Assembly (NCBI GenBank): GCA_963702845.1
Contig: OY969763.1
Span: forward strand, 64,001-128,000
Direction of reading: 5' to 3'
DNA length: 64,000 bases
DNA from: an uncultured Verrucomicrobiae bacterium
Lineage (GTDB): Bacteria > Verrucomicrobiota > Verrucomicrobiia > Limisphaerales > Palsa-1400
A program made the position numbers and the translations under genes. Positions 27,610-62,740 of the stretch are shown piece by piece. The notes under the pieces were generated by a model, which worked only from the letters and a program-made list of their open reading frames with translations, ran no database searches and was not told the DNA's origin. Position 1 is the first letter of the stretch; every line of letters begins with the position of its first letter.

Positions 27610-27631
27610 TGGAGCCAGTTGCCGGACTTGA
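27610..27631 (-). repeat. att site copy 1: 3' end of a tRNA (probably tRNA-Thr)
   Basis: Reverse complement TCAAGTCCGGCAACTGGCTCCA reads as T-loop, T-stem, acceptor strand, U73 and CCA; 21 bp are identical at 37528-37548. Confidence 0.85.
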
Positions 27632-37527: not shown

Positions 37528-37548
37528 TGGAGCCAGTTGCCGGACTTG
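37528..37548 (-). repeat. att site copy 2: 3' end of tRNA (probably tRNA-Thr)
   Basis: TGGAGCCAGTTGCCGGACTTG is identical to 27610-27630 and lies ~250 bp from the integrase stop. Confidence 0.85.
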
Positions 37549-37705: not shown

Positions 37706-37844
37706 GATGTCCAGTTTGGTGTCCGAAATGGTGTCCGTTTTTCCGGATCGGAATTGTCGGTTCGCAACAGTTGGCTAAACGCGACGACTTTTTCTAACCG
37801 TTCACTTGCCGTTGAAGCCCGTTTTGGTGTCCAAAATGGTGTCC
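37706..37844. repeat. GGTGTCC heptamers at 12-bp spacing (arm-type-like sites)
   Basis: GATGTCC 37706; GGTGTCC at 37718, 37730, 37826 and 37838. Confidence 0.7.
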
Positions 37845-38966: not shown

Positions 38967-39093
38967 CGGGCGCAAAAATGAAGATGGAATCGCGCTACTG
39001 CAAGAAAACGTAAGAGCTTGCGTGTTTGATGGGCCGAAACGTTGATGAACGTCGGCTTGCTTCATGACTATTGTTTAAGAAACACTCGATCCC

Positions 39094-39963: not shown

Positions 39964-40045
39964 ATTGACACGCGCGTTGGATGGTTGGTTTTGTTCGCAG
40001 ATGCGCTGCTGGCGCTAGAGGCTAGACGCTGGTAAAGGTCAAGCC

Positions 40046-42724: not shown

Positions 42725-42828
42725 ATTTTTGTTCGTTCGATGTTAGATTGCGAGTCCAGCTTCTTGTGTGGGCTTTGCAGAGTGATCTTCATTAATTCAA
42801 ACGAGCGTATGGTTGCTAGGTGTGTTTC

Positions 42829-43581
42829 TTAATGAGGATGTCGGAAGAGTTTGATAGAGATGCAAGCGTGTCGTGCGCCACGCCTTTGGTTTGTTCTGTT
42901 TTGTGGATTCCGTGCTGTGTGAGCGCGATCGGCGAGGTCTTTAATCAGCGAGGCCATTGGTGGTCTGGCAAATTCGTGGCGCCAGCCGACGATTGACGGG
43001 TCGGTGAGCCACTGAGGTATGGCAGGATAGCGTTTCTGTTCCAATTCGTGTTGGAGGTTGTCGGAGAGAAGTCGGACAATCCATGCAGCTTCACGCGTCT
43101 GCTTATTGGCTTCGTTGTCGCGGTTTAGTTTGTTGTGAATCAAGACACCGCCGAAGGCAAGAATGGCACCCAGTGCGGTTGAGAGCAAAGATACCACCCA
43201 GGCTGAAATCGGGCTTTGAGCAGGCATCATGCTGATAGTTTTAAAAAGCGCACAGTTTTTGTTTGATGCGGTGAGCATTACAGCAAGCTCCTCGTTCTCC
43301 GACAGTGGGGCCAATTCCAGATTTGTCAGAAGTGTTGTGAGTTGCAAGCTGCCGCTGGAGTAGGGCTGTAGGTTGGGTAAACGCAGCAAAGCCCATGATG
43401 TTGCGCTGGGAGTCTTCGCTGGTAGCAGTAATGTGATGCTCGTGCCACCCGATGCAGACCTCGCCGCCCAGGATTCAACGGTGGGAGGATTTGGGGCGAA
43501 GACTGGACTGGCGGTCGTCCGGTTGGCCAGAATGCAAGCGGCACAGAGGAACGTTGGAAGTAGTGCCCTAGGCGATGCCAT
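42829..43581 (-). CDS. Exported single-TM hypothetical protein
   Basis: Signal peptide, TM (WVVSLLSTALGAILAFGGVLI); start overlaps the upstream ATPase stop. Confidence 0.65.
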   Translation of the reverse strand: MASPRALLPTFLCAACILANRTTASPVFAPNPPTVESWAARSASGGTSITLLLPAKTPSATSWALLRLPNLQPYSSGSLQLTTLLTNLELAPLSENEELAVMLTASNKNCALFKTISMMPAQSPISAWVVSLLSTALGAILAFGGVLIHNKLNRDNEANKQTREAAWIVRLLSDNLQHELEQKRYPAIPQWLTDPSIVGWRHEFARPPMASLIKDLADRAHTARNPQNRTNQRRGARHACISIKLFRHPH

Positions 43582-45724: not shown

Positions 45725-45978
45725 GCGGCGATGCAGACAGCGCCTTGTTTGATGGAGGCTATGCGCAGGCGAAACAGCGTTCGGTTGCGAGTTGGTTTGG
45801 TGCTTCTTCTAAAACCGCAGGTCATTTGCATAGGAGCCGTTTCCATGGGGCTCGTGGAAGTCCACTTATTACGAGCCGACGTCACATTTAGGGACAGCGT
45901 GATTATGAGTTTGTTTATGCTTCTGTCAACTGAACTTGATGAAATCGTAAAAGTCTGATTGGCGGGACTGTTATGCAT
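45721..45978 (-). CDS. Small basic hypothetical protein
   Basis: 85 aa; its stop overlaps the ATPase start (ATGA), suggesting translational coupling. Confidence 0.4.
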   Translation of the reverse strand: MHNSPANQTFTISSSSVDRSINKLIITLSLNVTSARNKWTSTSPMETAPMQMTCGFRRSTKPTRNRTLFRLRIASIKQGAVCIAA

Positions 45979-46200
45979 GGTAAGCCACGAAATTAGAACG
46001 AAGGCCGAAAAATCGATCGATGTGCGTGCATCCGTCACGCGTAATGCTTTTTGAGAGAGATGCAGCTGTACTGCCGGCGCTGGAGGCCACGTGCACGAAA
46101 AGGAAATAGCCGCCGCGCCGGTCGCACTTTGCAATGCAGAGAGCAACGGTGTTTCGAGAGTTGCAGGATGGCGGTGTTAGGCTCATCGTTTGTCGCGATT

Positions 46201-47517
46201 ATGGAAATCGTTTATTGCGTGATCTGCTTTGCGGCAGGAGCCGTGGTTGCGGGTTTTATGGTAGCGTCACGATACAGGGCGGAATTGCAGTTTATGCAGG
46301 AAAGGAAGACGACCTTGGAGGGCGAGCGGGATAAGGAAAAAGGCGACTTGGCGGCGGCTCAAAGTGAAGTCGTCAGACTGACGGGAGGATTAGCAGCAGC
46401 GAGTGCGAACCTGAGTAATGCGGAGAGCCGACTGAAGGATTACGGCAAGGAAGTGGAGCAGATGCAGGGAAGATTAAAGATCGAGTTTGAGAACCTAGCA
46501 AACCGAATTCTGGATGAGAAATCTTCAAAGTTCACAACACAAAACCAAACGAACCTAGACCTATTGCTGACGCCGCTCCGGCATCAGATAGCCGAGTTCA
46601 AATCCAAGGTGGAAACAGTCCATACTGAGGACCAGACCGATCGGGCGGTTTTACGGTCGCAAATCGAATTATTGAATACGGCAAGCGTTGAGATGACCGG
46701 CGAAGCGAAGAATTTGACATTGGCGCTGAAAGGGGATTCGAAGACTCAGGGAAACTGGGGCGAGCTGATCTTGGAGAAGGTGCTCGAGAGTTCCGGCCTG
46801 ACCAAGGGGGTGGAGTTCACTGTTCAGGGGTCCTTAAAGGACGAGGCTGGCGCGAATTTGCGTCCGGACATAGTTATCTGCTTGCCTGATGACAGACACT
46901 TTGTGGTGGATTCCAAGGTTTCACTGACGGCCTACGAGCGCTACTACAGCGAAGGTGACACTGAGCAGCGGCAGAGGATTCTCAAGGAACATGTGTTTTC
47001 AGTGCGGAAGCACGTTAAGGAACTGGCTGAAAAGAAATACCAGGACCTTTATCAAATCACGACGCCCGATTTCGTTTTCATGTTTGTTCCGATCGAGCCC
47101 GCGCTGAGTTGCGCCCTGCACGCGGACAGCGCCTTATTCAACGATACTTTTGAGCAGAAGGTGATCTTAGTGACGCCGTCGACCTTGCTGGCCACTCTCA
47201 GGACCGTGGCACATATTTGGAAACAGGAAAAACAGACACGTAATGCAAAGGAGATAGCCCGCAAAAGCGGTGCGTTGTATGACAAGTTCGTTGGTCTTTA
47301 TGATGATCTGTTGAAGATAGGTGCGCACCTCGAGGCAACAACCAAGGTTTACCACGATGCCCTCGGCAAGCTAAAGGATGGTCGCGGCAACCTGATTAAG
47401 AGTGCTGAAGACATCAGAATGCTCGGAGCAAAAGCGGACAAGAGGCTGCCGGACGCTTTGGTGCAGGAGGTAGGTGAAAGGGCCTTGGCCGCTGGAGATG
47501 ATCATGTCCGAGAATGA
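46201..47517 (+). CDS. rmuC: DNA recombination protein RmuC
   Basis: N-terminal TM, coiled coil, KTQGNWGE..LE..LE.SGL, RPD.VI.LP, VDSKVSL, PDFVFMFVPIE, TPSTLLATL. Confidence 0.95.
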   Translation: MEIVYCVICFAAGAVVAGFMVASRYRAELQFMQERKTTLEGERDKEKGDLAAAQSEVVRLTGGLAAASANLSNAESRLKDYGKEVEQMQGRLKIEFENLANRILDEKSSKFTTQNQTNLDLLLTPLRHQIAEFKSKVETVHTEDQTDRAVLRSQIELLNTASVEMTGEAKNLTLALKGDSKTQGNWGELILEKVLESSGLTKGVEFTVQGSLKDEAGANLRPDIVICLPDDRHFVVDSKVSLTAYERYYSEGDTEQRQRILKEHVFSVRKHVKELAEKKYQDLYQITTPDFVFMFVPIEPALSCALHADSALFNDTFEQKVILVTPSTLLATLRTVAHIWKQEKQTRNAKEIARKSGALYDKFVGLYDDLLKIGAHLEATTKVYHDALGKLKDGRGNLIKSAEDIRMLGAKADKRLPDALVQEVGERALAAGDDHVRE

Positions 47518-48039
47518 AAAAAGACAGGCACTCCTGTCTTTAGGGGAAAAGATCCGCTCACGTGAGAACTGGTGGCTTTATCCAGCCGAACCAGACGTCG
47601 AGGGTTTCTTGGGCACTGATCCAATTTTCATTGTAGGTGACCAACCATCTACCGCCGCGTGGGAGTATGAGCATCCGCATCGGCGTGCCTTTTATGATTG
47701 CTTGTCACATTGGGCGCTGGCGGTTCGCACTTAACAGACGTTTACAAACGCCGAGGGTTCTCGGGCGAACTGCGAAACGGGCTACCGGATGACTTTGATG
47801 AGCATCTGGAAATATTCCGTGAGGAAGTGAAACTCCTCAACCCAACAACAATCTTGGCATTGGGTCGGGACGCTTATGGACTTCTGCTGAAGCATACGCC
47901 TTACTTAACCAACCGGATCATGCGCGTATGGCATTTCGGAACTGTGCGGCACGGCAAGCTTGAGGAATTTCAGGCGAGACTGCGACACGGAATCGTTACC
48001 GCGCGGCGTAGAATGAAGCTTGGGAGAAACGGCGATTGA
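47504..48039 (+). CDS. Uracil-DNA-glycosylase-like protein (frameshift near 47700)
   Basis: IFIVGDQPS, HLTDVYK, EEVKLLNPTTILALGRDA, VWHF follow the UDG superfamily layout. Confidence 0.65.
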
Positions 48040-48121
48040 GTTGATCCAAGGCATGGTGTCGGTTATCCGCTGCCGGCGCTAGAGGCTGGGTGCATGAAAA
48101 TGTAATACCCTCGCTGCGGCC

Positions 48122-48778: not shown

Positions 48779-49678
48779 ATGACTGCGGCAGAATTGTTGG
48801 AGAAATTGGGTAAGGTGACAGTCTGGAAACGCGGAGGTGAGCGTGCTCCGCACAAGCCGCTCTTGATCCTGTTGGCAGTCGGGCGGATTGCGCAAAACAA
48901 GCCCAGGTTGATGCGGTTCGCTGAGGTCGAGGAACCGCTCCGGCAGTTGTTGATAGAGTTTGGTCCCCGCAGAAAATCATATCACCCGGAATACCCGTTC
49001 TGGTATTTGCGCAATAATGGCATTTGGGAAATTCCTGATGCCGGAGATGTGGCCCTTAAAAAGAACCATCGAGACCCAAAGCTTGATGATATTCGAAGAT
49101 TCAGCGGCGGATTTTTACCCGAGGCCTACGAAGTTCTGCACAAACATCCAGGATTGCAAAGGGAGGCGGCCACGGAAATCTTGAAGGCGAATTTCCCAGA
49201 TTCTCTTCACGAGGAAATTCTCAGCGCCATCGGAATTAGTCGCGAAGATGCGGAAACGAAGCGCAAGAAGCGCAATCCAGAATTCCGCTTGCTGGTAATG
49301 CGTGCTTACCAGCACAAATGTGCGATATGCGGATTCGATATGCGATTAGGAGCGTCCGGTTTGGGTCTCGAAGCGGCCCACATTCAGTGGCATCAGGCAG
49401 GTGGCCCGGATAGCGTAGATAACGGCCTTTGTCTTTGGACCATGCATCATCATCTTTTTGACCGCGGGGCGTTCGGGCTCACGAATAGAGGACAAATTGT
49501 GGTCAGCGAAGAAGTCCATGGCTCCAGCGGGATTGATGAATGGTTGCTCCGCTTCGAAGGACAGCGACTAAAGAAGCCACAGCGGGAGAGCTATCTTCCT
49601 AAACAAGAGTTCATGGACTGGCACCGGACGGAAGTATTTAAATCACCAGCGCGCGAAACGCTTAAGGCCGGCGTTTAG
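48779..49678 (+). CDS. SBD-HNH (phosphorothioate-binding-domain) restriction endonuclease-like protein
   Basis: RAPHKPLLIL...PEYPFWYL....IWE (sulfur-binding domain pattern) plus FRLLVMRAY..KCAICG...EAAHI...NGLCL..MHH.LFDRG (HNH). Confidence 0.85.
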   Translation: MTAAELLEKLGKVTVWKRGGERAPHKPLLILLAVGRIAQNKPRLMRFAEVEEPLRQLLIEFGPRRKSYHPEYPFWYLRNNGIWEIPDAGDVALKKNHRDPKLDDIRRFSGGFLPEAYEVLHKHPGLQREAATEILKANFPDSLHEEILSAIGISREDAETKRKKRNPEFRLLVMRAYQHKCAICGFDMRLGASGLGLEAAHIQWHQAGGPDSVDNGLCLWTMHHHLFDRGAFGLTNRGQIVVSEEVHGSSGIDEWLLRFEGQRLKKPQRESYLPKQEFMDWHRTEVFKSPARETLKAGV

Positions 49679-49693
49679 GAAATTAAGAGAGTC

Positions 49694-50956
49694 ATGCAGG
49701 TTCATTTTCAACACTGGGATTACGAGATTCCGAGCGATTTACTCATGCGCTACGGCAGCCCGTTCTTTTCGAGGCCAGATGCGGGTGCGGCGTTAAGAGA
49801 GGCGCTAATACGCGGGGCTTCCCTCGTAGGGACTCACTCAATCCCAATTCGAGAGGCGCAGGTCATATGTTGCAACGAGGCTTTTCCGGAAGCCGCAGTG
49901 GCTGACCCTTTGGCTGATTTGCGCGTGTGGACTGAGTGGGAGAATGGGCATCGTGTGTTTCCATACCCCGGCCGTTTCAGCCGGCTCGGTCTAACCAAGC
50001 AGGAGGGAAAAACCTCCAGCCCATCGAGTGTCGGGGTCCTTGGCGAAATTCTTGCAGGTATATTCGCGCAATCGTTCATCGCGCCGCAGGTGTTGGTGCG
50101 TTGCATTCGTCATTGGCCGGACTTTATTTTTTATGCTGGCGGTGACATTTACTCATTCGTCGAATCGAAGGCGTTTACCGGTGCTTCTAAAGGGAACAAA
50201 TTGGTAGATCGCGTCCCTGATCCGCTGATTCGCGATGCGATGTGCGATGCAGTTCAGCAGTTAAATGCAGATCCACACCTGGAGATTTGGAGTTCTTTCA
50301 CTGGTGTCGTGGAAATTGACCCAGCTTTTTCGGTGACTGTAACAATGTTGCGGCTCTTTCCTTCGCAACAGCGCCGCAACGCAAACCCTCGGGCTATCTT
50401 ACCGCAACCGGTGGTGCGTGGAGTCGCTGAACGTGCGGTTGCGCTAGCGGCGCTCGGTCTTTCGGCAGAAGAGCTCCAGCTGCTCGGTAGCAAGGCTGGA
50501 AAGGGATTGTATTTCGTGCCGGGTACGAGAATTACGAAGGAAGATTTGCAGCGACTTGTACGCACGAATGCGTTAAAACAGGCCGAAATCGTGTTGGCAG
50601 AAATGGCTCAAGACGCAGCCGTCAGTGGATCGCGTCGGGACATCGAATCTGAGATCGAGCTTTTGATCCGAAACTATCGAGTGAATGAGTCATCTGTCGG
50701 AAAGCGATTTTTTGAGATTAAGCAAGGGGGCGAATTATCAGTCCTCCAGCGGGTGAGGAGAGCCGCTGATGAGTGGATATTCATGGCAAACTTAGCGGGA
50801 ACTGACCTCGCCCGCTTTGAAGCAAAGTGGCACGCGGATTGGAGTAAAGCGGGTGAGCCTGCGACGACCATTGATGGCCATGGCGCGTGGCGAGCTGGCG
50901 GCGCGGCGTACGTGTTAGGGCCAGCGAATATTGAAGGTTCCCCCGTTTTGCTTTGA
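49694..50956 (+). CDS. Putative PD-(D/E)xK nuclease
   Basis: GVLGEILA ... WPDFIF ... FVESKA spacing fits a PD-(D/E)xK active site; the rest is unrecognised. Confidence 0.6.
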   Translation: MQVHFQHWDYEIPSDLLMRYGSPFFSRPDAGAALREALIRGASLVGTHSIPIREAQVICCNEAFPEAAVADPLADLRVWTEWENGHRVFPYPGRFSRLGLTKQEGKTSSPSSVGVLGEILAGIFAQSFIAPQVLVRCIRHWPDFIFYAGGDIYSFVESKAFTGASKGNKLVDRVPDPLIRDAMCDAVQQLNADPHLEIWSSFTGVVEIDPAFSVTVTMLRLFPSQQRRNANPRAILPQPVVRGVAERAVALAALGLSAEELQLLGSKAGKGLYFVPGTRITKEDLQRLVRTNALKQAEIVLAEMAQDAAVSGSRRDIESEIELLIRNYRVNESSVGKRFFEIKQGGELSVLQRVRRAADEWIFMANLAGTDLARFEAKWHADWSKAGEPATTIDGHGAWRAGGAAYVLGPANIEGSPVLL

Positions 50957-50967
50957 TCATATCTAAG

Positions 50968-52098
50968 ATGATTTACCTCGATCACAATGCCACGACGCCT
51001 GTAGCACCGGAAGTTGTCGAAGCAATGATGCCGTATCTGACGGCTGAATGGGGCAATCCGTCGAGTAGCTACAAATTTGGAGCAAAGTTAAAATCAGTTG
51101 TCGAGGCAGCGCGGGGCCAGGTAGCTGAACTGCTGGGCGCGAACCCGGGCGAAGTGCTTTTCACGTCTTGCGCGACGGAAAGTAACAATGCTGCGATTCA
51201 CGCCGCGCTCAAGGCAAACCCTGGGAAGCGGCATATTATAACGTCGGCGGTCGAGCATTCATCCGTGCTTAATTACTGCATTGCGCTGGAAAAGGAGGGT
51301 GTCAAGGTCACCTACTTGCCTGTGGATCGCGAAGGTTTGCTCAAGATCGCAGACCTGGAAGCGGCGATCTCCGATGAAACGGCTGTGGTGTCGCTGATGT
51401 GGGCAAATAACGAAACTGGCGTCTTATTCCCATTACCGGCAATTGCTGATGTGTGTAAAGCGCGAGGCGTATCATTCCACTGCGATGCGGTTCAGGCTGC
51501 GGGCAAGGTGGAGATCAATTTGCAGAAGGTCCCAGTCGATTACCTATCGGTGACTGGACACAAATTCGGCGCGCCTAAAGGAATCGGGGCGCTATTTGTG
51601 CGTCGCAAAGTGCCATTCTCGCCGCTAATCCACGGCGGACATCAAGAGCGAGGACGTCGCGGAGGCACGGAAGCGATGCCGTTGCTGGTCGGCTTGGGCA
51701 AGGCGGCAGAACTGGCGCGCAAGAAACTGTCTGATTATAACGGGCTGGTCCGCCCGCTCCGAGACGCATTGGAGTGCGGGATTCTGTCTTCGGTTCCCTA
51801 CACAGAGTTAAATGGTCACAAGATCCATCGCCTTGCGAATACCACAAATATTACCTTCCAAGGCATAGAATCTGAGGCGTTATTAATGTTATTAGATCAG
51901 GAAGGAATTTGTGCTTCGTCGGGTTCAGCGTGCTTAGCTGATTCGAGCGAGGCGTCCCATGTTATCAAAGCCATGAAGCCCGACACACGCTCTTCACGTC
52001 AGATGGTTCGATTTTCTTTCGGGTGTCAGCATTCAGAATTGGACGTGGAACAAACCCTCGCTAAAATAAATACCGCCGTAAGCGCCTTGCGCCCATGA
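50968..52098 (+). CDS. iscS: Cysteine desulfurase (IscS/NifS type; probable DndA role)
   Basis: IYLDHNATT, GNPSS, ANNETG, HCDAVQ, GHKFGAPKG, SSGSAC. Confidence 0.9.
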   Translation: MIYLDHNATTPVAPEVVEAMMPYLTAEWGNPSSSYKFGAKLKSVVEAARGQVAELLGANPGEVLFTSCATESNNAAIHAALKANPGKRHIITSAVEHSSVLNYCIALEKEGVKVTYLPVDREGLLKIADLEAAISDETAVVSLMWANNETGVLFPLPAIADVCKARGVSFHCDAVQAAGKVEINLQKVPVDYLSVTGHKFGAPKGIGALFVRRKVPFSPLIHGGHQERGRRGGTEAMPLLVGLGKAAELARKKLSDYNGLVRPLRDALECGILSSVPYTELNGHKIHRLANTTNITFQGIESEALLMLLDQEGICASSGSACLADSSEASHVIKAMKPDTRSSRQMVRFSFGCQHSELDVEQTLAKINTAVSALRP

Positions 52099-52117
52099 GC
52101 TTTGCTGGTGGAGTGCA

Positions 52118-53395
52118 TCATGTTATTAAGCCACCCATGCCAATCAATTTCTCTTTCAGTGTATTTTGCATCACGCCAAGCTTTTCGATCTCCTTGGGGG
52201 TGAACATCTCCGCTCTAAATTTCGCGTATAGGTCGTTTTGAATTCCGCCACCACCGGTTTTCGGCGGGTTTGCCACGTCGTCGGGCGGAGCCTTGCGCCA
52301 TCTTTCCACTACAAGCTTATAGCTGTCCATCAACTGTTCGGGTCCGCCTGCCAAGAGGATGTCGTCGTGCAAGATCCGCATGATTACGGCAACCCCATTA
52401 TTTTTCCACAGGAGGGATCTTGAATTTGCAAATTGATCAACCAATGCAGCCTGAATAGCGCGAATGTACAGAATAAGTAGCGACGCGCATCCTGCTGGAT
52501 CAGATTCTTTGAAAAAGCTGTAGAGTAGTGGCAAAACTTTTAAACGGCGTGTGAAGGTTTTGGGTTCAACTAGGGCTGCTAAGTATTCGACGACTGCTGC
52601 CTGCGAGATGAGGCCGACATCTCCGGGCCCTCGCATCTTGATCTTGGCCTGCCACGGGGACTCCTCGAAGCGATTGAGGATGCGCGCCACGTGACTGCAG
52701 AACCGTGAAACTGCCATTAGTCCTTCGTAAAGTTTTTCGTCTTTCGTCCCGCCGAGTGGAGCATACCCAAACAGGTCAAAGATAATCGATCTGTTAACCG
52801 GCTTCTGCCGGCCGTTGATAACGGCAAAGATCTCGGCCTGTTGGTAGAATGGTATTTCCACGAGGAATGTCACGACAACGCTCATTCGGCTGCGGATTTC
52901 ATTTTTCAGGTATCGAAATCCTTCAACCCGATGTTGTCCGTCTAGAATAACCGCTGATTTCTCCTCTCTCGGCAACACGATCGTTAGGTGGCCGTTGGCA
53001 CCGGATTTGATGATTTCGGGCTCATCAAAGCCAAGGTCAACGGCCAGAATTATCGAATTGGGGAGAAGGGCATCCGGTTGTTCAAGATACTCAGCAATCT
53101 TTTGCGCTCTCTTAGCATCGACGAAGCGCTGGTATTGTTGTCGGGGTTCTTCGCTCAAGAGTTCCTCGGCTCGGCGTTGAAATTTTGGCGAATCGAGCGC
53201 GCTAATCAGCTTATCTAGTTGGTCCTCTTTCAGTTCAACCGGTTGGAACGATTCACGCGCGAATACGCCCGTTTCGACTGGCTTATAGAGCGGGCGGCAA
53301 ATGCATAGCAGATCGTTTACGGGGACGGTTGCCACGTAGAATGTTGCCGCAGGCTGAGAAACGCGAAGAATAGGTGCTCGGAATGGTATTTTCAT
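52118..53395 (-). CDS. DGQHR-domain (DndB-like/ParB-fold) protein
   Basis: YQRFVD.KR..KIAEYL, LPNSIILA, ILDGQHR, F..IN..QKPV..S. Confidence 0.9.
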   Translation of the reverse strand: MKIPFRAPILRVSQPAATFYVATVPVNDLLCICRPLYKPVETGVFARESFQPVELKEDQLDKLISALDSPKFQRRAEELLSEEPRQQYQRFVDAKRAQKIAEYLEQPDALLPNSIILAVDLGFDEPEIIKSGANGHLTIVLPREEKSAVILDGQHRVEGFRYLKNEIRSRMSVVVTFLVEIPFYQQAEIFAVINGRQKPVNRSIIFDLFGYAPLGGTKDEKLYEGLMAVSRFCSHVARILNRFEESPWQAKIKMRGPGDVGLISQAAVVEYLAALVEPKTFTRRLKVLPLLYSFFKESDPAGCASLLILYIRAIQAALVDQFANSRSLLWKNNGVAVIMRILHDDILLAGGPEQLMDSYKLVVERWRKAPPDDVANPPKTGGGGIQNDLYAKFRAEMFTPKEIEKLGVMQNTLKEKLIGMGGLIT

Positions 53396-54225
53396 AACGT
53401 GCCAGCCCTTTTTTCTCCGTTTCCGAGCTTTCCTTTCAGCCTTTCCTTTACTTCGTCCGTATCTTCTCTCGAAAGAGCGTCACCCAGTGGTGCTGGGCCG
53501 CTTGCTTCAGTAGTAATAGCCACTTCTGGACCAGGCGGAGCCGTTTCTTCACCAAGTTTTGTCCGTAACTTCGCCTGAAGCTGGTCAATGTCAGTTAGCG
53601 CTTTCTCGAGAACAGCTCGGGTGCTGTCAATTTCTGATTCATGCTGGCCCGCTCGCCGCGCACTTTTTTCCGCGTCGTCAGCTTGCTCTTTAGCTTGCGT
53701 CCGAATCTTCTCGAGCTCCTTAACGGCTTTATCTCGGAAGTCTTCCCATTCCGCACGCCATTGCGCGTCGGCCCTAGCAATACGTTTGCGATACTCATCA
53801 TTGAAGTCGCGGAGACTTTTGAATGCAAACCAACCGACGACGCCTGCTCCCAGACTCACGATGCTTGCCAGAATTCCGATCCACCAGCCAAAGCCTTGAA
53901 AGACGCTCGCTACTTTATCGACGGTCTTATTATTCGCTTCGACCGCATCCTTAAATAAAAGGTGCGTGTCTTCTTTTTTTGGAGCCAACTCGCTGGCAAT
54001 CGTTGCGGTAGTTTGTGTGGTCTGTTTTTCCAGCATAGCCAACCGGGCTAGCAGTTGCTTCCAATCTGCTTCAGTAGAGGGACTGCTGGCCTTCGTCGGT
54101 GGTAATGCAGCAGGCGATATTTGTGGCTTCAGTGGTGGCGCGGCCGCAGGGTTCGTCGGTTGAGCAACAAGGAAATGACAATTCAATCCTATGGCTACAA
54201 CCGCTAAAGATTTTAACAATTTCAT
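53392..54225 (-). CDS. Exported/TM coiled-coil protein
   Basis: Signal peptide, Pro-rich linker, one TM (WWIGILASIVSLGAGVVGWF), long coiled coil; 4-bp overlap with the DGQHR gene. Confidence 0.7.
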   Translation of the reverse strand: MKLLKSLAVVAIGLNCHFLVAQPTNPAAAPPLKPQISPAALPPTKASSPSTEADWKQLLARLAMLEKQTTQTTATIASELAPKKEDTHLLFKDAVEANNKTVDKVASVFQGFGWWIGILASIVSLGAGVVGWFAFKSLRDFNDEYRKRIARADAQWRAEWEDFRDKAVKELEKIRTQAKEQADDAEKSARRAGQHESEIDSTRAVLEKALTDIDQLQAKLRTKLGEETAPPGPEVAITTEASGPAPLGDALSREDTDEVKERLKGKLGNGEKRAGTL

Positions 54226-54271
54226 TGTTTCCCAAATTTGTTTTTCGTTTACGAATTCTGAAGCCGTCAGC

Positions 54272-55831
54272 TCATTTTCCTATGCTGTCGGGCTTCCAAC
54301 ACTTTATTCGCATAGCCTGCCTGCCAGGCAATTTGGCGAAAGCAACGCCGGTTTCCAAATATGCGTCACCGAACTCTTCTGCCTGCAATTTCCTTCCATA
54401 CACACCCTGTAGTGAACGCAAGCCACGTTGGGTTTGGTTACAATAAAATGAAATGACCGCGCCAAGTTGGGTGGTGAAGTCGTAACTCTGGCCTTCAAAA
54501 TCGCTTGGGTCTTGAGACAGCAGCATCACAGATAAACCCTTGGCGGCGCTTCGTGTAACTAACTGGACAATCGATTCCGATTTTTTTTCCTGCAATATTT
54601 TGCGGGCTTCATCAATAACCACAACTTGTCGCATTTGTCGAAAACCACCGCGTAATGGCGCTTCAGACAAGGCGAGAAAGTGCATCGCCGTGGCATCCAG
54701 CAATAACAACATGACCAAGCGCTTCAATTCTTCAGATTTTATATGCTGTAGGCTGACAACCCACGAGCGGGAGAAGAAGTCTGCAGCCGTCATGGTTGGT
54801 GCGAAACAGCGAAGACGTGTAAGCTCGTCCAACCGCGCGGCAATGCTGTCAATCACTTCACCGTCAATTTGTAAGCGCTGTTCGTATGTTTCCTTAATTG
54901 AGGAGAGGCTGCGATCATCACCCGTGGTAATCACTTGTTCGATAGACTGCAGGAGTCGAGACTGCATTAAATTGCCAGGAGATTTACAGCAAAGGCAAAT
55001 GCTGTCGCGCAGAGTCATTGATGCATTTTGAACGGCTACATGGCCAACGTGAGGACTGGGCAAGAAGTCTAAAGGGATTGGGTGCAGCCCAACCTCTATT
55101 GGCTGTATCTCGACTGGCCAGGCGGGAAATTTATCATTTAATTTTCCGTCAGTGATAAAGGTGCCTTGGGGATCAATCAGCAACATCGGCGCGCGTGATT
55201 GCTCAACAATGCTTTGCGCCATCTGGATGCCGGTTGTGGTTTTACCGCTTCGGGTTCTTCCCATTAGTGCCAGGTGGGGAGAATTGCCCGGGCCGTTTAA
55301 ACAAAAGTCAACGGGCTCCTTGCTGTCGAATGTTTGACTGACAGGGCCGATTTTCACCCTTATTTCGCCGGGGTGCGCACTGCCAGTAACGTGAGGCGCA
55401 GTTCCTCCTCCGCTAACTTCAGGAAGGAATTCAGCCAATTTAGTAATGAGCCGTGCTTCGTCGCCGCCACAATCGTCCCAATCCTGCTTTATCAGTTTTG
55501 CGCCCCGGGCCCAGTGCGCTTCAATGTGCGGACGCAAATGTTCAACGGCCGCGCCTTCGCTGATATTCGCATCAAGAATTAGAGCGCACAACCAGAGGTC
55601 AAGATCGTCGCCAAAAAGGAGCTCACCAGGCAACGGTTTGGCATATTGGGTTTCCGACGACAATGCTGGCGGCGGGGTTGGGTCGGCAAGCGATCGGCCG
55701 ATTAGTAAACGAGCGGCATCATAACGATGGGAAAGGCCAAATTTTGTGCGAAGCTTTTCCTCAACCTCGAACGCCTCCTGGCTCGGTTTGAACAACCCTT
55801 TCCAAACTGCTTCTTTGAATTCAATATTCAT
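54272..55831 (-). CDS. DndE-like domain fused to HerA/FtsK-type ATPase
   Basis: N-terminal ~130 aa with ARLLIGRSL...GELLFG...EAHWARG (DndE-like), in the dndE position after dndD; C-terminal HLALMGRTRSGKT, VVVIDEA, LLSQ.PSDF. Confidence 0.8.
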   Translation of the reverse strand: MNIEFKEAVWKGLFKPSQEAFEVEEKLRTKFGLSHRYDAARLLIGRSLADPTPPPALSSETQYAKPLPGELLFGDDLDLWLCALILDANISEGAAVEHLRPHIEAHWARGAKLIKQDWDDCGGDEARLITKLAEFLPEVSGGGTAPHVTGSAHPGEIRVKIGPVSQTFDSKEPVDFCLNGPGNSPHLALMGRTRSGKTTTGIQMAQSIVEQSRAPMLLIDPQGTFITDGKLNDKFPAWPVEIQPIEVGLHPIPLDFLPSPHVGHVAVQNASMTLRDSICLCCKSPGNLMQSRLLQSIEQVITTGDDRSLSSIKETYEQRLQIDGEVIDSIAARLDELTRLRCFAPTMTAADFFSRSWVVSLQHIKSEELKRLVMLLLLDATAMHFLALSEAPLRGGFRQMRQVVVIDEARKILQEKKSESIVQLVTRSAAKGLSVMLLSQDPSDFEGQSYDFTTQLGAVISFYCNQTQRGLRSLQGVYGRKLQAEEFGDAYLETGVAFAKLPGRQAMRIKCWKPDSIGK

Positions 55832-55837
55832 GGCTTC

Positions 55838-57907
55838 TCAAAAAAAGAAACGATTCGGGTGAACAATGGACCGCTTGTCGGATTCAACGAATTCAACAAG
55901 GAACTTCTGGCAAACGTGTTCTTCAATGTGTTCGAGCAGGTCATGGGTTACTTCGCGATCGTGAGTCAGAACGATAACCTGATCGCAGTCGAAACGGCGC
56001 AGGGCATCAAGTGTGCGCGGACGGTATTTGGAATCTGCGTTGCCCAAGGGAGTATCAATCACCAACGGCACGCGTCGGCGAGTGATTTCCGCCAGCGCTA
56101 ATGAAAACGCAATTCCAAATGATCGCCGTTCGAATCCGCTCATGGAACTTAGCAATGCTTTAGGGCTGCGGCCGTCAAAATGCAGATGCGGCTCACCGTC
56201 GTGGGTAAATGCGACGCGTCCGCCTTTGAATCGCTGGTCAGCGATAGCGAGGAAATGTTTTGTCACATGCTCTTCTAGTCGCTGTGTTGTCACTGGCTTG
56301 AGTTGTTCGGTAAGCGCTTCGACAGCGCGCGCTACACGGTCAGCCACAGCAATTCGCCGCTGTTCGGGCTCAAGTCGTGCCAGTTCTTCGCGCAACCGAC
56401 CAATCTCAGCAGATAAATCCTGATAATCGGCTTTCCATTTCTTGATTTCATTTTCCGCGGTAGAAATGCGGCGGATGGCTTCGTCCATCTGCTCGTCGAG
56501 GCGTTTGATACGCTCTGTTAAAGTCTTAGTTTCTTCAGATTGATTACCAAGCCGAACATGCCGCGCCTTGGCATCTTCAAAGCTTTCACGAGCGTCGCGT
56601 AACGTTTTTGCCACAGCGCGAACGTGATCAAAGGCGAAACTTTTGGTTTCATTAAGGCGGTTGAGCAATCGCGCACGTTGTTGACCGCGAATATGACCAA
56701 GCACAAAATGCTCTGCGGTATCAGGATCTGGTGGTTCGTAAATAGCCTGTAATGCAGTCAAAATCCTTTGCTTAACTTTTTCGCGCGTGTCTGCGGAGAT
56801 GTTGCCAAGCAACGGATCTCGATCTGGTGGCTCAGGCATGGCCTCCGCCAAAACCCTCTCCCGCTTGTCGAGCGTTCCCTGCCGCAGGTTTTCGTATTCT
56901 TCGCGCAGTTGTTCTTTGCGCAAACGCCGCCTAATTGAAGGATCCAGTCGGCTCACTGCGAGCACCAACCCGATTTGATTTGCAAGCTCGGTAACTGCTG
57001 CTTCGGCAGAGATTTTTTTGGCTTCGGCATCCTTGAACGCTTTATTGACGCGTTCAGTATCAGCAGCCCCGCCACCACCGGCGCGAACTAAATCATCACG
57101 ACGTTGGTTGCGTTCTCGATCCAACTCGTCTCGTTGCTGGTTTAATTCTTCCAGCTCACCTTCACGCCGGCCAATAAGTTTGTTGAGTTCGGTTTGACGG
57201 CTGATTTTTTGATTTAGAATTTCCTGTTTCTCGGAAGTTTTTTGCTTTCCGCCCAATGCCCCGTGAGATCGGGTGAGGTAGGTTCGAACTTGACTCTGTA
57301 ATTCCGATAATATGCTTGCGCCGAACATGGTGTTGACTGCCTTGCGGATACCCTCTTCCCCAGCGCCTTCAATCAGCGCTTGTGCTTGTTCGCCATCAAA
57401 GAAGAATGCCGGGCACACATGGGCAGGAAATAGTTCTTTCTCGATACGCTCGTTAGCAAGAATTGCTTCCATACGCCGAACGATTCGATCGCCAACATGG
57501 ATTTCCAATTCTTCAAATCCATCACCTATGCGGGGGGTATTTGCGCTTGTAAAATACCACCGGCGGATAATTCGCACCTCCTGCTCATCCCGATCATTCA
57601 AGGTTGGCGTAAAAGTGATATCAATCACGGTCGGCTCATCAGGGTCGGCGGTAGAGCGCCGGAATTTGGCGATAGCCTTACGGTAGGAGTTGATGTCGTT
57701 TTCGGCGATGGTACGAAAGCCTTCACAATGCCGTAGTCCGAAAGAGCCAAACAGGCCGAGATACAGTGAGATTAGGAAGCTGGTTTTGCCATGGCCATTC
57801 ATCGCCCCGATCAAAACAACGGGGCGTCTTTCCGTCGGACGTTTGAAGTCAAAATTCGCGTCTGAGTAACTACGCCAGTTGGTCAAATGAAGTTTCGATA
57901 AATACAT
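55838..57907 (-). CDS. dndD: DNA sulfur modification protein DndD (SMC/ABC ATPase)
   Basis: LIGAMNGHGKTS, FFFDGEQ, long coiled coil, MSGFE signature, LVIDTPLG. Confidence 0.9.
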   Translation of the reverse strand: MYLSKLHLTNWRSYSDANFDFKRPTERRPVVLIGAMNGHGKTSFLISLYLGLFGSFGLRHCEGFRTIAENDINSYRKAIAKFRRSTADPDEPTVIDITFTPTLNDRDEQEVRIIRRWYFTSANTPRIGDGFEELEIHVGDRIVRRMEAILANERIEKELFPAHVCPAFFFDGEQAQALIEGAGEEGIRKAVNTMFGASILSELQSQVRTYLTRSHGALGGKQKTSEKQEILNQKISRQTELNKLIGRREGELEELNQQRDELDRERNQRRDDLVRAGGGGAADTERVNKAFKDAEAKKISAEAAVTELANQIGLVLAVSRLDPSIRRRLRKEQLREEYENLRQGTLDKRERVLAEAMPEPPDRDPLLGNISADTREKVKQRILTALQAIYEPPDPDTAEHFVLGHIRGQQRARLLNRLNETKSFAFDHVRAVAKTLRDARESFEDAKARHVRLGNQSEETKTLTERIKRLDEQMDEAIRRISTAENEIKKWKADYQDLSAEIGRLREELARLEPEQRRIAVADRVARAVEALTEQLKPVTTQRLEEHVTKHFLAIADQRFKGGRVAFTHDGEPHLHFDGRSPKALLSSMSGFERRSFGIAFSLALAEITRRRVPLVIDTPLGNADSKYRPRTLDALRRFDCDQVIVLTHDREVTHDLLEHIEEHVCQKFLVEFVESDKRSIVHPNRFFF

Positions 57908-57910
57908 AGA

Positions 57911-58126
57911 TCACAGGTTTGGTCTGCGTTCCAGGAAACGGTCAATACAACCAGCAATATCGGCATCCACACCGTCTTTGCGTCCGGCGCCTGAATGCGC
58001 TTGCATGACTTCGCAGAGGTCTTTTAAGAGAGCCATATCTATTTGCGTCTCACGGCAAAGATTCTGGATAAGCTTTTTTGTTTCCTGATCTTCAAAGGCT
58101 GGTAATGGTCTCATTCGATTTATCAC
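57911..58126 (-). CDS. Small Dnd-associated protein
   Basis: 71 aa, tightly packed between dndC and dndD (8- and 3-bp gaps). Confidence 0.7.
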   Translation of the reverse strand: MINRMRPLPAFEDQETKKLIQNLCRETQIDMALLKDLCEVMQAHSGAGRKDGVDADIAGCIDRFLERRPNL

Positions 58127-58134
58127 TTCTTTTT

Positions 58135-59247
58135 TTAAGCGTTCATTTCACGCAGAATGTCCTGTGTCTGGTCCTTCTCCCACTGTTCCCGGATTAGACG
58201 CACTTCATGCTCAGTAATTAACGGTTCGTTGGTTTGTTCGCGAAGAGCGATTAGCTCACCAAGGAGCATCTGGCGAACTTCTATCGTTAATGGGCCAAGG
58301 CCAGGCTGCCCATTGCGCCGGATTTTGCTGCGACAATCAGGCGTTTCCGAAAGTTTCTTTAATCGGTCTCGAAATTTGGCAAGAGGCTCAAGATATTCGT
58401 GCCCATTGTCTATGAGAGCATCGAGCGAACGGTCTTTTTCGATCACAGTGCATGTCCAACAACCAAACCGAGCCGAGGAAGTTCCGCAGGACGGTGCATC
58501 GCCGGTTGTCATGACAAACGGACATTCGCCGCCACTGGCATCTTTGTAGAGTGATATCAGTTCCTGATATGTCCCCCCCCAAGGCGGACGATTTTGTTTG
58601 AGCGTAATCCAAACGTCATCATTCGTGAGTTCTTTAAGTGGCGAAAACACCCAAACACCCTTGTGATCGGGGTGCGGGGCTAAGCGGTCTCCGGAACCAC
58701 CTTCATTTCTGGATATGCTGCCTGCACGGGCTGCCGACTCAGACCGCCTTACTCCGAGCAGCAAAACAGCTTCGTCATTTTCGCTTACGATCTCACGGAT
58801 GAATCGCGAAGTAGGACGAATCTTCATCCGGTCGGTGCACCATCGAAAGGTCCGATTCGGTGCTGGGTACCCCTTGCCCAGCAAATTCACCCAAAAGCTT
58901 TCCTCTGGAAGTGGATTTGTCCGAATAATTTTGACCGGCACGTTTAACGGTTCGAGGTTGTCTTCCAGTTGAGAAAGCAGCCGATCAACGAAATTTTGAA
59001 ATACAGGCGACTCAACAAGGGTGTTATTGCTTACAACATAGACGGCGCGCTTGCGGTCATCCGGAGCAACCTGCCTGATGGCCTCCATCACAAGATGCAA
59101 TAGGAGTGTTGAATCTTTCCCCCCGGAAAACCCAATAATCCACGGCTTACCGTGCGGCTGGAGATACTCGTCTCTTAGCTCACGGCGGATGGCTTTAAGC
59201 TTTTCAGCGTATACTGTGCTCGGTGATTCTAGCAGTTCTGTTTGCAT
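58135..59247 (-). CDS. dndC: DNA phosphorothioation sulfurtransferase DndC
   Basis: PWIIGFSGGKDS, GKGYPAP..FRWCTDRMKI, LGVRRSES, GECP, SCG..RFGCWTCTV. Confidence 0.95.
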   Translation of the reverse strand: MQTELLESPSTVYAEKLKAIRRELRDEYLQPHGKPWIIGFSGGKDSTLLLHLVMEAIRQVAPDDRKRAVYVVSNNTLVESPVFQNFVDRLLSQLEDNLEPLNVPVKIIRTNPLPEESFWVNLLGKGYPAPNRTFRWCTDRMKIRPTSRFIREIVSENDEAVLLLGVRRSESAARAGSISRNEGGSGDRLAPHPDHKGVWVFSPLKELTNDDVWITLKQNRPPWGGTYQELISLYKDASGGECPFVMTTGDAPSCGTSSARFGCWTCTVIEKDRSLDALIDNGHEYLEPLAKFRDRLKKLSETPDCRSKIRRNGQPGLGPLTIEVRQMLLGELIALREQTNEPLITEHEVRLIREQWEKDQTQDILREMNA

Positions 59248-59544: not shown

Positions 59545-60621
59545 CTAATATGCGACCTCATAGCGTCGAGCGAGGCTAGTGGCCGTTTTCTGAACGTTGG
59601 CGGCCAATTCTGCGGGCCGCACAACATAGGCGTGGGTGCCCCAGCTTAGGATCCAGCGTTCGATTTCTTCGAGGCCGCTGAGGCGCATGCGCATTTGGGA
59701 ACCGCCGCATGGCAGCTCGGTCACGACCTGGGTTGGATGCCATTTTCGGCCGCGGAGTTGGTCGGTTGCAAAGGCGTCGAATTCGATCACGACTTCGTAA
59801 TCACCGGTGCCCTTCATAACACCGAAACTGCCGTCGAGATATTTGTCTGGATCGAAGTCCTTTGGTTTGGTGAACGGGTCACCGAGGCGCGGATTGGTTA
59901 TTCTGCCCAAGACGAAGGTGCGGACGTCGGACCGATCGATGTCGTATGCGATCAGATACCAACGGTTGTCGATGCAGGGCAAGTGATACGGATGGACGTG
60001 ACGCGACTCGGCGGTTTTTTGTCCAGGTTTGCGGTATTCGAATTTGAGCGCGCGATGATCCTGCAGCGCGCGCGTCACGATCTGGAAGATTTCGATGTCT
60101 GTGTCTTCTGGTGCGAACGGACGGAACGAAAGCGCCTCCTGCATGTTTTCCGCCGTGTATCGTTCCTTTCGATCCAATTGGCCGGTTAGCTTTGCGAACG
60201 CCATCAGCAGCGGTTGGTAAAATGGCGTGCCTTTGTATTGTTCGATTGCCTTGTGCGCGACGAGGAGCGCGAAGAGTTCGGATTCAGTGACCTTTACAGA
60301 GCCGGGGAATTTGTCGACGGGTTTGGAATAATAAAAGCCGTGGCGGTTGCGGTCGTATTCAATGGGCAAGTCAAAGTGGTCGCGCATGAATTGGAGGTCG
60401 CGTGCAACGGTCTTGTTTGAAACTCCCAGGTCAAACGCGATGCTTTGCGCGTTCGGAAGTTTGCCTGCTGCGATCAGTTCGTGAATGCGGAGAATTCGCT
60501 CCATGGGTTCTCTTCGGAGTTTTACAGGGCGCATGCTGCGATGGCCCGCGCGTGTGAGGGAGTGTTCACGAATTTCGGAGACTGCGGGTTTGTTATTTTC
60601 GTATTCTTTTTGAATTTTCAT
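59545..60621 (-). CDS. wHTH-WYL-WCX transcriptional regulator
   Basis: LGVSNKTVARDL HTH; FEYRK...RHVHPY.L....RWYLIAYD..R.DVRTFVLGRI WYL; WILSWG..AYVVRP WCX. Confidence 0.95.
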   Translation of the reverse strand: MKIQKEYENNKPAVSEIREHSLTRAGHRSMRPVKLRREPMERILRIHELIAAGKLPNAQSIAFDLGVSNKTVARDLQFMRDHFDLPIEYDRNRHGFYYSKPVDKFPGSVKVTESELFALLVAHKAIEQYKGTPFYQPLLMAFAKLTGQLDRKERYTAENMQEALSFRPFAPEDTDIEIFQIVTRALQDHRALKFEYRKPGQKTAESRHVHPYHLPCIDNRWYLIAYDIDRSDVRTFVLGRITNPRLGDPFTKPKDFDPDKYLDGSFGVMKGTGDYEVVIEFDAFATDQLRGRKWHPTQVVTELPCGGSQMRMRLSGLEEIERWILSWGTHAYVVRPAELAANVQKTATSLARRYEVAY

Positions 60622-60794: not shown

Positions 60795-61604
60795 TTGAAA
60801 ACGAAATCTGCAAAAGCCGAATTGGAGCGACTCATTTGCGAAAATGCGGAACTAAAAGATAAAGTGGGTCGGTTGGAGTCTGCACTGTCAGGTACTGGAG
60901 GTAACCCCGCAAGGTACGATTTTGAACAGGCCCTGGCTCACAGGCTTCGCACACGAATGTTGGCGCTGGAATGCTTAATCTATGCAATCGGCATTCCAGA
61001 AGATGAACGAAGCACCGTTTTTGATACTGTACACGATTTAAGGCGCATTACAGACAACTTCATGAATCTTACCTTGGCAAACGAGATGAGATTTGAGGAA
61101 ACGACACTGATTGGTATTTTGCGGCGTGCGCTAAAACCACTCACAAGGCCGGACGCTCGGATTACTGTTAACGGCTTCTCTTTGGAGACTTATCCTGAGA
61201 AAAAGGATCAATACGAATTAGTGGCGGACAAGGCAAAACTCGCCGATGTGTTTTTTGAACTGGGCACCAACTCACTGAAATGGGCGCGAAAGTCTCCACA
61301 TGAAATCAAAATATCAGTTGACCAGGTCACAAACGGGTCTGCGGCTGACCGTCCGAAACGAGATGCTTCGCGGAGGTTTAGGATAGTTTTCGAAGACTCT
61401 GGTCGTGGTGTAACTGCTTCAATTAAACCAAAGCTGTTTCAGCCATTCGTCTCTGGTGCACAAGGCGGAACAGGGCTCGGACTCGCGATCGTAAATGAAA
61501 TTATTCGGTCTCACCATGGGGCGATTAAGGAGACTGGAGCCCCAGATCAGGGCGCGCGTTTCGAGATAATTCTCCCGATCGACCCCAGAAAACCTTCGAT
61601 GTAA
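60795..61604 (+). CDS. Sensor-less cytoplasmic histidine kinase
   Basis: Short coiled coil, H-box ALAHRLRT, ELGTNS, EDSGRG, LFQPF, GTGLGL. Confidence 0.85.
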   Translation: MKTKSAKAELERLICENAELKDKVGRLESALSGTGGNPARYDFEQALAHRLRTRMLALECLIYAIGIPEDERSTVFDTVHDLRRITDNFMNLTLANEMRFEETTLIGILRRALKPLTRPDARITVNGFSLETYPEKKDQYELVADKAKLADVFFELGTNSLKWARKSPHEIKISVDQVTNGSAADRPKRDASRRFRIVFEDSGRGVTASIKPKLFQPFVSGAQGGTGLGLAIVNEIIRSHHGAIKETGAPDQGARFEIILPIDPRKPSM

Positions 61605-61606
61605 CT

Positions 61607-62740
61607 ATGGCTGACCGACATCTTATCTTGGTAGTAGATGATCATCGTCCAACCGCGATTGCGCTCAAGAAGGTGCTTAACAACCGCAAGCCTAGCTGGG
61701 AGATTCTATTGGCTCACAGTGTCGAAGATGCGAAGCAGACAATCGAAACTCACCATTTAGATGCAGTCGTCACCGACTGGAGGTTAAATGAGCAGGACCA
61801 AGGTCAAACTGGCTTTCAAGTTGTTGAAGCTATGCATAGGAGGGATCCATGGTGTGTCAGTATCCTGATAACTGGGTATCCAGAAGCTTTGACCGGGTAC
61901 GAAAAAGCATTCCCGATGTCCGTTTATGATTGCATATCAAAGAACGCAAGAGGCGTAGTAGTTGTTGACGAACTTTGCATAAAATTGGACGCCGCTCTTA
62001 AGAGAAGAAGAGCACACCAAGATGCCAATTTTTACGCCAGGCACATCGATCACAGGCTTCGTCTGTCCTTTGGAACCACGTTGGACAAATCGCGGATAAC
62101 GTCGCGATGGCTGACTATCATGTTTACCGATATCAGGGGATTCTCCGCGGTTGCCAATCAATTGCGGACCGAAAAGGAGATGATTGCCGATTTCCTCCAG
62201 CAACTCTACGCCGCCACTGTGGATTGTGCGCACAAGCACGACGGCATAGTTGATAAGTTTATGGGCGATGGGGCCATGCTGTTATTTGGTGTTGATGATG
62301 ATGATAATAGTTCCAAAAATCGACGTCATACGAAGAATGCAGTGCGAGCAGCGCTTGATTTGAGGAAACGTTGTGGGCCGATTATTGAAAGTTTTAGAGA
62401 GCAGGCCGCTGGAATGCATGCTGCACAAATCGCAGGCTTAGATTTGGGAATTGGAATCAATACTGCGGAGGTGTTAGTCGGTATAATAAAGACCGAACTT
62501 CGGGATCAGTTTACGGCTTTAGGACATGGCGTGAATCTCGCGCAACGTTTTGAAAGCATCGCTGGAAAGTCCAGCAGTCCAAACGCAAAACACCGTTATG
62601 GCAATATTCTAATCACGTCAATGGTAGAGAGCCGTATCCGTGGCGATTTTGTAATTAAGGTAGAACCTTCGCTTGCAAATCTGCGCAATATAAATGAGCC
62701 CCATGATGTTTGGAGTGTGGTGCGCGAAGTCGAACGGTAA
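61607..62740 (+). CDS. Response regulator fused to class III nucleotide cyclase
   Basis: REC (ILVVDDH..VVTDW); cyclase FTDIRGFS, DKFMGDG, GINT, FTALGHGVNLAQRFE. Confidence 0.9.
   Translation: MADRHLILVVDDHRPTAIALKKVLNNRKPSWEILLAHSVEDAKQTIETHHLDAVVTDWRLNEQDQGQTGFQVVEAMHRRDPWCVSILITGYPEALTGYEKAFPMSVYDCISKNARGVVVVDELCIKLDAALKRRRAHQDANFYARHIDHRLRLSFGTTLDKSRITSRWLTIMFTDIRGFSAVANQLRTEKEMIADFLQQLYAATVDCAHKHDGIVDKFMGDGAMLLFGVDDDDNSSKNRRHTKNAVRAALDLRKRCGPIIESFREQAAGMHAAQIAGLDLGIGINTAEVLVGIIKTELRDQFTALGHGVNLAQRFESIAGKSSSPNAKHRYGNILITSMVESRIRGDFVIKVEPSLANLRNINEPHDVWSVVREVER

Follow-up and report, generated by a model that had tools for sequence, protein, structure and literature searches.

The 64,000-nucleotide stretch analyzed here (contig OY969763.1 of an uncultured Verrucomicrobiae bacterium, positions 64,001 to 128,000; the whole stretch is called "the window") carries, between positions 48779 and 59247, a locus for Dnd phosphorothioation (PT) of DNA whose modification half is of the DndE::HerA/FtsK-fusion subtype, already described computationally. 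The new part of the locus is an unnamed protein, here called X, and its pairing with this Dnd subtype. Judged from sequence, there is an even chance that the DndE::HerA Dnd module PT-marks host DNA, that X is its optional arm for restriction or abortive defense, and that a neighboring gene for a sulfur-binding domain (SBD)-HNH nuclease is a disabled passenger.

All nine open reading frames (ORFs) listed in a preliminary description of this DNA were present, with strands and order as claimed: on the minus strand dndC, a 71-amino-acid (aa) gene, dndD, the dndE::ATPase fusion, a transmembrane (TM) coiled-coil gene and a DGQHR gene converge on SBD-HNH, X and a desulfurase gene on the plus strand (Table 1). 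Library scans upheld the family labels (TIGR03183, NF045808, TIGR03187, and PF08870 plus HerA); gaps put at ~10 to 15 bp throughout were inexact, ranging from −4 to 46 bp (15, −4 or 11, 19, −4, 46, 6, 3 and 8 bp across the locus). The genome that holds the window is a single contig of 6.03 Mb (completeness 89.8%), and the window's close homologues with names come from Verrucomicrobia. A promoter and terminator scan gave signals at or below chance.

Table 1. Features of the PT locus and its surroundings, in window coordinates
Feature	Position	Strand	Basis or remark
Att-like tRNA-Thr 3' end copy, second	27610-27630		Same 21 nt
Att-like tRNA-Thr 3' end copy, 21 nt	37528..37548	+	Likely left end of carrying island
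Dispersed island repeat, ~55 nt, one copy	48067..48120	+	Repeat profile; outside PT system
EcoWI-like SBD-HNH PT-dependent endonuclease, 299 aa from ATG	48779..49678	+	NF045808; likely disabled at codon 49436-49438
Protein X, 420 aa, unnamed predicted PD-(D/E)xK nuclease	49694..50956	+	Motif, fold search, linkage
Dedicated cysteine desulfurase, functional DndA	50953..52098	+	ATG at 50968 likely; PADLOC DndA
DGQHR/DndB-family (ParB-like) protein, 425 aa	52118..53395	-	TIGR03187 over cut-off
Membrane coiled-coil orphan, 277 aa, variable cargo	53392..54225	-	Hydropathy
dndE::herA fusion, 519 aa: N-terminal DndE + HerA/FtsK ATPase	54272..55831	-	PF08870, HerA
dndD ABC ATPase, 689 aa, DndD clade, no CxC hook	55838..57907	-	TIGR03185, PADLOC
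Sp-DndD small gene, 66-71 aa	57911..58126	-	PF20306, PADLOC DndC, Sp profile
dndC, PP-loop sulfurtransferase, 370 aa, without C-terminal domain	58135..59247	-	TIGR03183
Helix-turn-helix (HTH)-WYL-WCX regulator	59545..60621	-	Upstream of dndC; island gene, paralogues elsewhere in genome

By their sequences, the desulfurase, DndC, a split-off C-terminal piece of DndC, DndD and DndE form a complete modification set with catalytic motifs intact. DndC scored 341.5 bits against TIGR03183 (cut-off 290.4) and keeps the SGGKDS, RWC and CWTC motifs. Its specificity loop reads N-R-T, between T-R-S (GAAC/GTTC) and N-Q-T (GATC) and unlike R-x-K/R (GGCC), which, under the loop classes of the prediction paper, makes GAAC/GTTC or GATC, and not GGCC, the probable kind of PT target. 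The product of the adjoining 71-aa gene matched Pfam Sp-DndD (PF20306) at E = 0.0017 and aligned to positions 405 to 455 of the PADLOC DndC model, and a five-protein Sp profile matched the C termini of unsplit, 431- to 449-aa DndC proteins (L023, E = 1.5e-5; L012, E = 0.003); direct BLAST of Sp against one unsplit DndC gave no match, where the profile search did. Because the Sp profile and the PADLOC positions both map to the DndC C terminus, we identify the gene, on alignment, as the split-off C-terminal domain of DndC. Residues 433 to 482 of E. coli DndC bind DndD in predicted structures with pull-down support, in the part of PMC12193691 consulted, and the small Sp protein likely binds DndD.

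DndD aligned over its full length to TIGR03185 at 224.9 bits, below the 245.85 cut-off, and the adjacent gene matched PF08870. On PADLOC models it scored higher as PbeC (273 bits) than as DndD (238 bits). However, CxC is the mark of the PbeC clade (Rakesh 2024, PMC10853773), and none of the four cysteines of this protein forms a C-x-C, which rules out a PbeC/CxC ATPase despite the higher PbeC score. The desulfurase reached 472.8 bits on PADLOC DndA and 370 on TIGR03235 (cut-off 480), has HKF and SSGSAC motifs and, in an unrooted FastTree phylogeny, joins the desulfurases of other dnd loci, while three chromosomal paralogues fall elsewhere; a housekeeping IscS was rejected on this grouping. Encoding the sulfur donor outside the dndC operon had been presented as an oddity but is not one, since S. 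lividans dndA is separately transcribed (PMC2653506).

In the fusion protein, PF08870 covers residues 16 to 117 (E = 5.6e-5, just under the cut-off) and HerA residues 174 to 264. The best PDB sequence match of the HerA domain is DptH (7es4, E = 4.6e-12), and Walker A, Walker B and the sensor Gln are intact (none of the 109 rows departs from G196, K197, D407, E408 or Q440). DndE fused to HerA/FtsK and adjoining a DndD-related ATPase, the arrangement found here, is clade 3 of Rakesh 2024 (PMC10853773), in which the HerA is common to one DndH group; DptH as the best solved relative agrees with this placement. The architecture therefore cannot be called undefined, as it had been: that paper has DndE::HerA beside a DndD-type ATPase and, in the text consulted, just 316 taxa with the full set of eight dnd genes, most dnd modification loci being without dndFGH. 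A literature search returned nothing on Sp-DndD, DndE-HerA or split DndC, and literature searches found no experimental study of the DndE::HerA subtype. The subtype is rare: across five genome samples of 250 to 400 each (401, 401, 351, 401 and 251 genomes, the first two overlapping) only nine other genomes gave a match, and none was found in GTDB contigs (single-protein scan) or viral contigs (profile scan). A desulfurase lies nearby in 4 of 10 DndE::HerA loci and a DGQHR gene in 3. Two distant loci carry the same HATPase_c_3 and Methyltransf_35 pair behind dndE::herA (L012:13795-16181 and L053:4858-7174).

Known restriction arms were searched for. DndH (restriction endonuclease [REase] plus HerA, ~1,700 aa) had 0 matches in the 89.8%-complete genome, with the control positive in 4 of 14; the other two dnd-associated families looked for, TIGR03236 and TIGR03237, also had 0 matches in the genome, and their controls were blank as well. 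No PbeA-like gene or HKD-superfamily 2 (SF2) helicase exceeded the cut-off, the best TIGR04095 match (E = 2e-6) falling far short of it and lying distant from the locus. General library scans gave no candidate ORF for DndI in the locus, although no search aimed at DndI was made. The DndH and Pbe results agree with the preliminary description that dndFGH and pbe are unrecognizable at the locus and support a PT-system variant without either.

Protein X had no match in Pfam, NCBIfam, PADLOC or PHROGs and no P-loop match in the libraries scanned. Its family is small (125 matches at 90% clustering; 189 among 1.84 billion 50% representatives). The PD-(D/E)xK assignment made earlier held: all 105 aligned rows have E118, P142 and D143, and 104 have E157 and K159; in the structural model (pLDDT 91) this near-invariant motif falls on a helix-strand-strand core, with E118 on helix 110-128, PD142-143 before strand 144-149 and E157-x-K159 on strand 152-162. 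When the isolated nuclease domain was compared with solved structures, LHK-Exo (Z 7.2, root mean square deviation [rmsd] 4.7, 109 aligned), Hjc (Z 6.8, rmsd 3.2, 94 aligned), a phage exonuclease (Z 6.6) and many restriction-fold proteins were recovered; in part by title, we take about 45 of the 50 rows to be nucleases. Foldseek returned nothing at E ≤ 0.001 for whole X or its nuclease domain, and a PDB sequence search with the X profile nothing below E = 0.1. A structural search with whole X (PspGI, Z 6.7; EcoRII, Z 5.5) was not relied on, being dominated by a helical region. Window X matches its family at every column that is at least 90% conserved, and four pairwise comparisons of orthologues gave nonsynonymous differences (pN) of 0.07 to 0.31 against synonymous differences (pS) of 0.44 to 0.72.

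To place X in context, 73 X loci were surveyed and reduced to 62 non-redundant groups, of which 10 carry a dnd core gene and 13 a dnd gene or desulfurase; most others are short contigs, and dnd genes occur in 7 of the 18 groups with at least 4 kb downstream. The convergent arrangement, X-dndA facing dndE::herA-dndD-dndC, recurs in seven other loci (L012, L014, L018, L020/21, L022, L023/25 and G200), and other orders also occur: dndE::herA then X (L028), X then dndC (L035 and L038) and divergent (L053). Among 37 X proteins picked for having context, a tree puts window X in a starred clade; 11 of the 12 rows in this clade are linked to dnd, iscS or TIGR04096, and more dnd-linked X proteins sit on other branches. 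The dnd-associated methyltransferase TIGR04096 is often encoded upstream of X in relatives. The preliminary description had linked two nucleases to dnd; the linkage of X is conserved, whereas that of SBD-HNH is not, since tblastn found no homologue of SBD-HNH or of the TM gene in any of the 13 X groups with a link to dnd or iscS. Its proposal of SBD-HNH, TM and DGQHR as a conserved restriction arm falls with this result, and the X-locus survey rules them out as fixed partners; they are variable cargo. The X-dnd pairing was not found in the main text of Rakesh 2024, whose supplement may list it, nor in the parts consulted of PMC12914056, PMC12839542, PMC3226654, PMC12707154 and PMC11662687.

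From the known pathway, the desulfurase would hand sulfur to DndC, the Sp protein would bridge DndC to DndD, and DndD-DndE would scan DNA. As an optional arm of this Dnd module, X could cut incoming DNA that is unmarked or, as a backup, the host's own DNA, while the DndE-tethered HerA might play the role of the related HerA domain inside DndH. Several results weigh against this reading. X was seen in only one of the nine other DndE::HerA genomes (G200; these are drafts, several with loci truncated or at contig ends), or 1 of 10 loci reached from DndE::HerA, and it was not found in the 25.5-kb megaplasmid DndE::HerA locus of M. extorquens AM1; the counts that start from X are biased, favoring sequences closely related to the query. 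This makes X an optional partner of DndE::HerA Dnd that is fixed mainly in one lineage. It also lies between pglX and pglZ of bacteriophage exclusion (BREX) systems in L008, L010 and L041, next to BREX genes on one side only in L052 and L058, and in type I restriction-modification (R-M) clusters in L005, L057 and L070, and thus cannot be strictly PT-dependent across its family. The top row of the X-domain fold search is a non-nuclease (Z 7.9), and no row reaches Z 8. Finally, a family Arg at position 429 of the fusion protein (99 of 109 rows), putatively the HerA arginine finger, is Ala here and in seven relatives (8 of 109 rows), so that the HerA motor of this subclade may be weak, although an Arg two residues earlier might stand in for it. 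Four of the five BREX-linked X homologues belong to one starred clade.

The main rival takes the Dnd genes as a solitary modification unit and X as an autonomous nuclease, for example a modification-dependent one or a stand-alone abortive effector, that hitch-hikes in many defense clusters and does not read PT. The BREX and type I R-M contexts suit it, as do loci in which X lies opposite a Z1 gene or in Z1/helicase clusters and the fact that DndE::HerA loci are mostly without X; stand-alone REases are backup effectors both in the text consulted of Rakesh 2024 (PMC10853773) and in a 2026 BREX survey. Against that, close coupling of X with the desulfurase, dndC or dndE::herA persists through four gene orders and on several tree branches, and we regard hitch-hiking as possible, if somewhat unlikely. 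More doubtful still is the bolder proposal that X is a new PT-coupled restriction arm, in which a DndH-like machine has been split, with HerA on DndE and a separate PD-(D/E)xK nuclease. Were it true, one DndD-DndE scanner would have two tasks, to write the sulfur mark and to license cleavage, and the X family would be a plug-in arm, also recruited by BREX and type I R-M.

The SBD-HNH protein scored 341.2 bits against NF045808 (cut-off 180), its SBD matches ScoMcrA and SprMcrA-type structures, and its HKP and YPFW motifs are intact. Its HNH Cys/His set is broken: residue 224 (from GTG) is Trp, whereas all 119 homologues have Cys here, a residue that we presume to be a Zn ligand of the HNH zinc finger. 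In a Logan assembly, the protein is identical up to this site and its gene is then frameshifted and split into 227 and 78 aa. As the invariant Cys is replaced in one version and the other assembly is frameshifted there, both versions damage the HNH domain, and the nuclease is likely disabled. EcoWI-type SBD-HNH enzymes cut GpsAAC/GpsTTC DNA, dnd clusters adjoin fewer than 3.6% of their homologues, and inactivating mutations have been suggested for the copies that do adjoin dnd clusters (PMC7461809, in part); co-expression of dndA-E with ScoMcrA is lethal to the host (PMC3009677). Nuclease function may thus have been lost after SBD-HNH and dnd genes met on one island, because a PT-cleaving enzyme would attack the marked host genome, and the damaged gene would illustrate, in nature, that PT modification and PT-dependent restriction are incompatible, as predicted.

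It is also conceivable, though improbable, that the SBD protein works, either against foreign PT DNA of another sequence or as a nuclease-dead PT reader that regulates X. The intact HKP and YPFW motifs and its position 15 bp upstream of X would fit such a role, as would wHTH+SAD+HNH genes in 698 dnd taxa (Rakesh 2024, PMC10853773, main text) and an SBD-only ORF of 153 aa directly behind dndE::herA in G1560 (L096:2384-2842), a second nuclease-less sulfur-binding protein beside DndE::HerA. However, besides the lost Cys and the frameshift, SBD-HNH is absent from all 10 of the X groups linked to dnd or iscS that extend at least 1.2 kb upstream, where the slot often holds the TIGR04096 methyltransferase; in the 73 X loci its one tblastn match was L056, with no dnd gene in view. 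There is, lastly, a slim chance that the cluster is decaying island cargo without present defense function, as the damaged SBD-HNH gene, the replaced putative Arg finger, the orphan TM gene and the phage-like island would allow, but the core genes are all full length, X keeps every conserved column with pN below pS, and the Arg-to-Ala change is common to seven relatives.

The remaining genes vary between loci. Residues 2 to 21 and about 105 to 136 of the TM protein are hydrophobic, upholding its label; the protein forms a singleton cluster, its Atlas matches all lie below 0.9, and tblastn found no homologue in the 73 X loci. The DGQHR gene likewise had no tblastn-level homologue in these loci. 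In L018, L022, G646, G1590 and G1560, this slot or one next to it is filled by DndB/DGQHR genes (those in L018 and L022 being more distant), and the DGQHR gene is a recurrent, exchangeable accessory. A WYL regulator is encoded near X in 1 of 73 X loci. Neighbor-gene scans took in 80 and 89 selected proteins out of 251 ORFs. In the window, beyond the regulator at 60795-62740, a HATPase protein adjoins a receiver-adenylate/guanylate cyclase with PADLOC PycC matches.

The locus had been described as one unit between boundary motifs at 48069 and 59485, which was not borne out. The two sites have a single 11-mer in common (48071 and 59485), as do 4 to 31% of random segment pairs of the tested sizes, and the 59485 site is a left core only, which the repeat profile did not pick up at E ≤ 10. 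The motif belongs to a dispersed ~55-nt repeat with 10 full copies, at window 29947, 40003, 46068 and 48067 and at genome 1687626, 1687960, 1692432, 3330450, 4320078 and 4321176, near paralogues of the WYL gene; partial copies lie at window 32342 and 59481. The repeat profile had no match below E = 0.3 in 95 related loci. The chance 11-mer rate, the repeat copies and this null rule out the motifs as unit ends. The repeat sits at gene-module junctions of integrated islands and is possibly a recombination or regulator site.

Instead, the mobile unit is likely a larger, ~48.6-kb phage-like island at a tRNA-Thr gene (genome 150163-150238), with an integrase at window 37794-39065, as inferred from attachment-like (att) sequence copies and gene content. 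Between the inner att-like copy and the tRNA lie genes for two integrases, a repressor, primase, terminases, portal, capsid and head-tail adaptor; no phage tail gene was found among 13 ORFs scanned beyond the window (genome 128000-150238). The two att-like copies suggest tandem islands. Other contents of the region include defense-like cargo at window 39094-47517 (NERD nuclease, Schlafen AlbA_2-STAND-TPR of 892 aa, Sll1717-like ATPase of 718 aa, RmuC, and a split UDG-like pair at 47474-48039) and, in the outer island, an IS110-family transposase at 33387-34313.

How invaders are restricted in cells with dnd but without DndFGH is an open question in the text consulted of Rakesh 2024 (PMC10853773), for which this locus, with six modification genes and a single unnamed nuclease, is a compact candidate. 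Compared with known systems, it includes a member of the EcoWI/SprMcrA group by NF045808, with SBD motifs intact; the enzymes of that group cut PT DNA and seldom adjoin dnd, and the copy here has lost the invariant Cys (PMC7461809, in part). It resembles IscS-DndBCDE-DndI, in the part of PMC11662687 consulted, in that X would offer a single-gene PT-coupled restriction arm without DndFGH, but DndI is an ATPase-nickase, unlike X with its lack of a P-loop match. With PbeABCD/CxC it has in common an ATPase that scores well on PbeC models and a small gene adjoining that ATPase, whereas it is without the CxC hook and HKD-SF2 helicase, and its small gene is a DndC fragment. It shares modification chemistry with DndABCDE-DndFGH and carries a relative of the DndH HerA domain; in contrast to DndFGH, REase and HerA lie on separate genes, HerA is fused to DndE, and nothing matches DndH. 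The DndH motor may plausibly have evolved from the DndE::HerA subtype. The text of Rakesh 2024 names no X family, convergent X-dndA pair or split DndC, though its figures or supplement may; its DndE::HerA subset is like the locus in combining a DndD-related ATPase and DndE::HerA/FtsK with nucleases nearby and no dndFGH.

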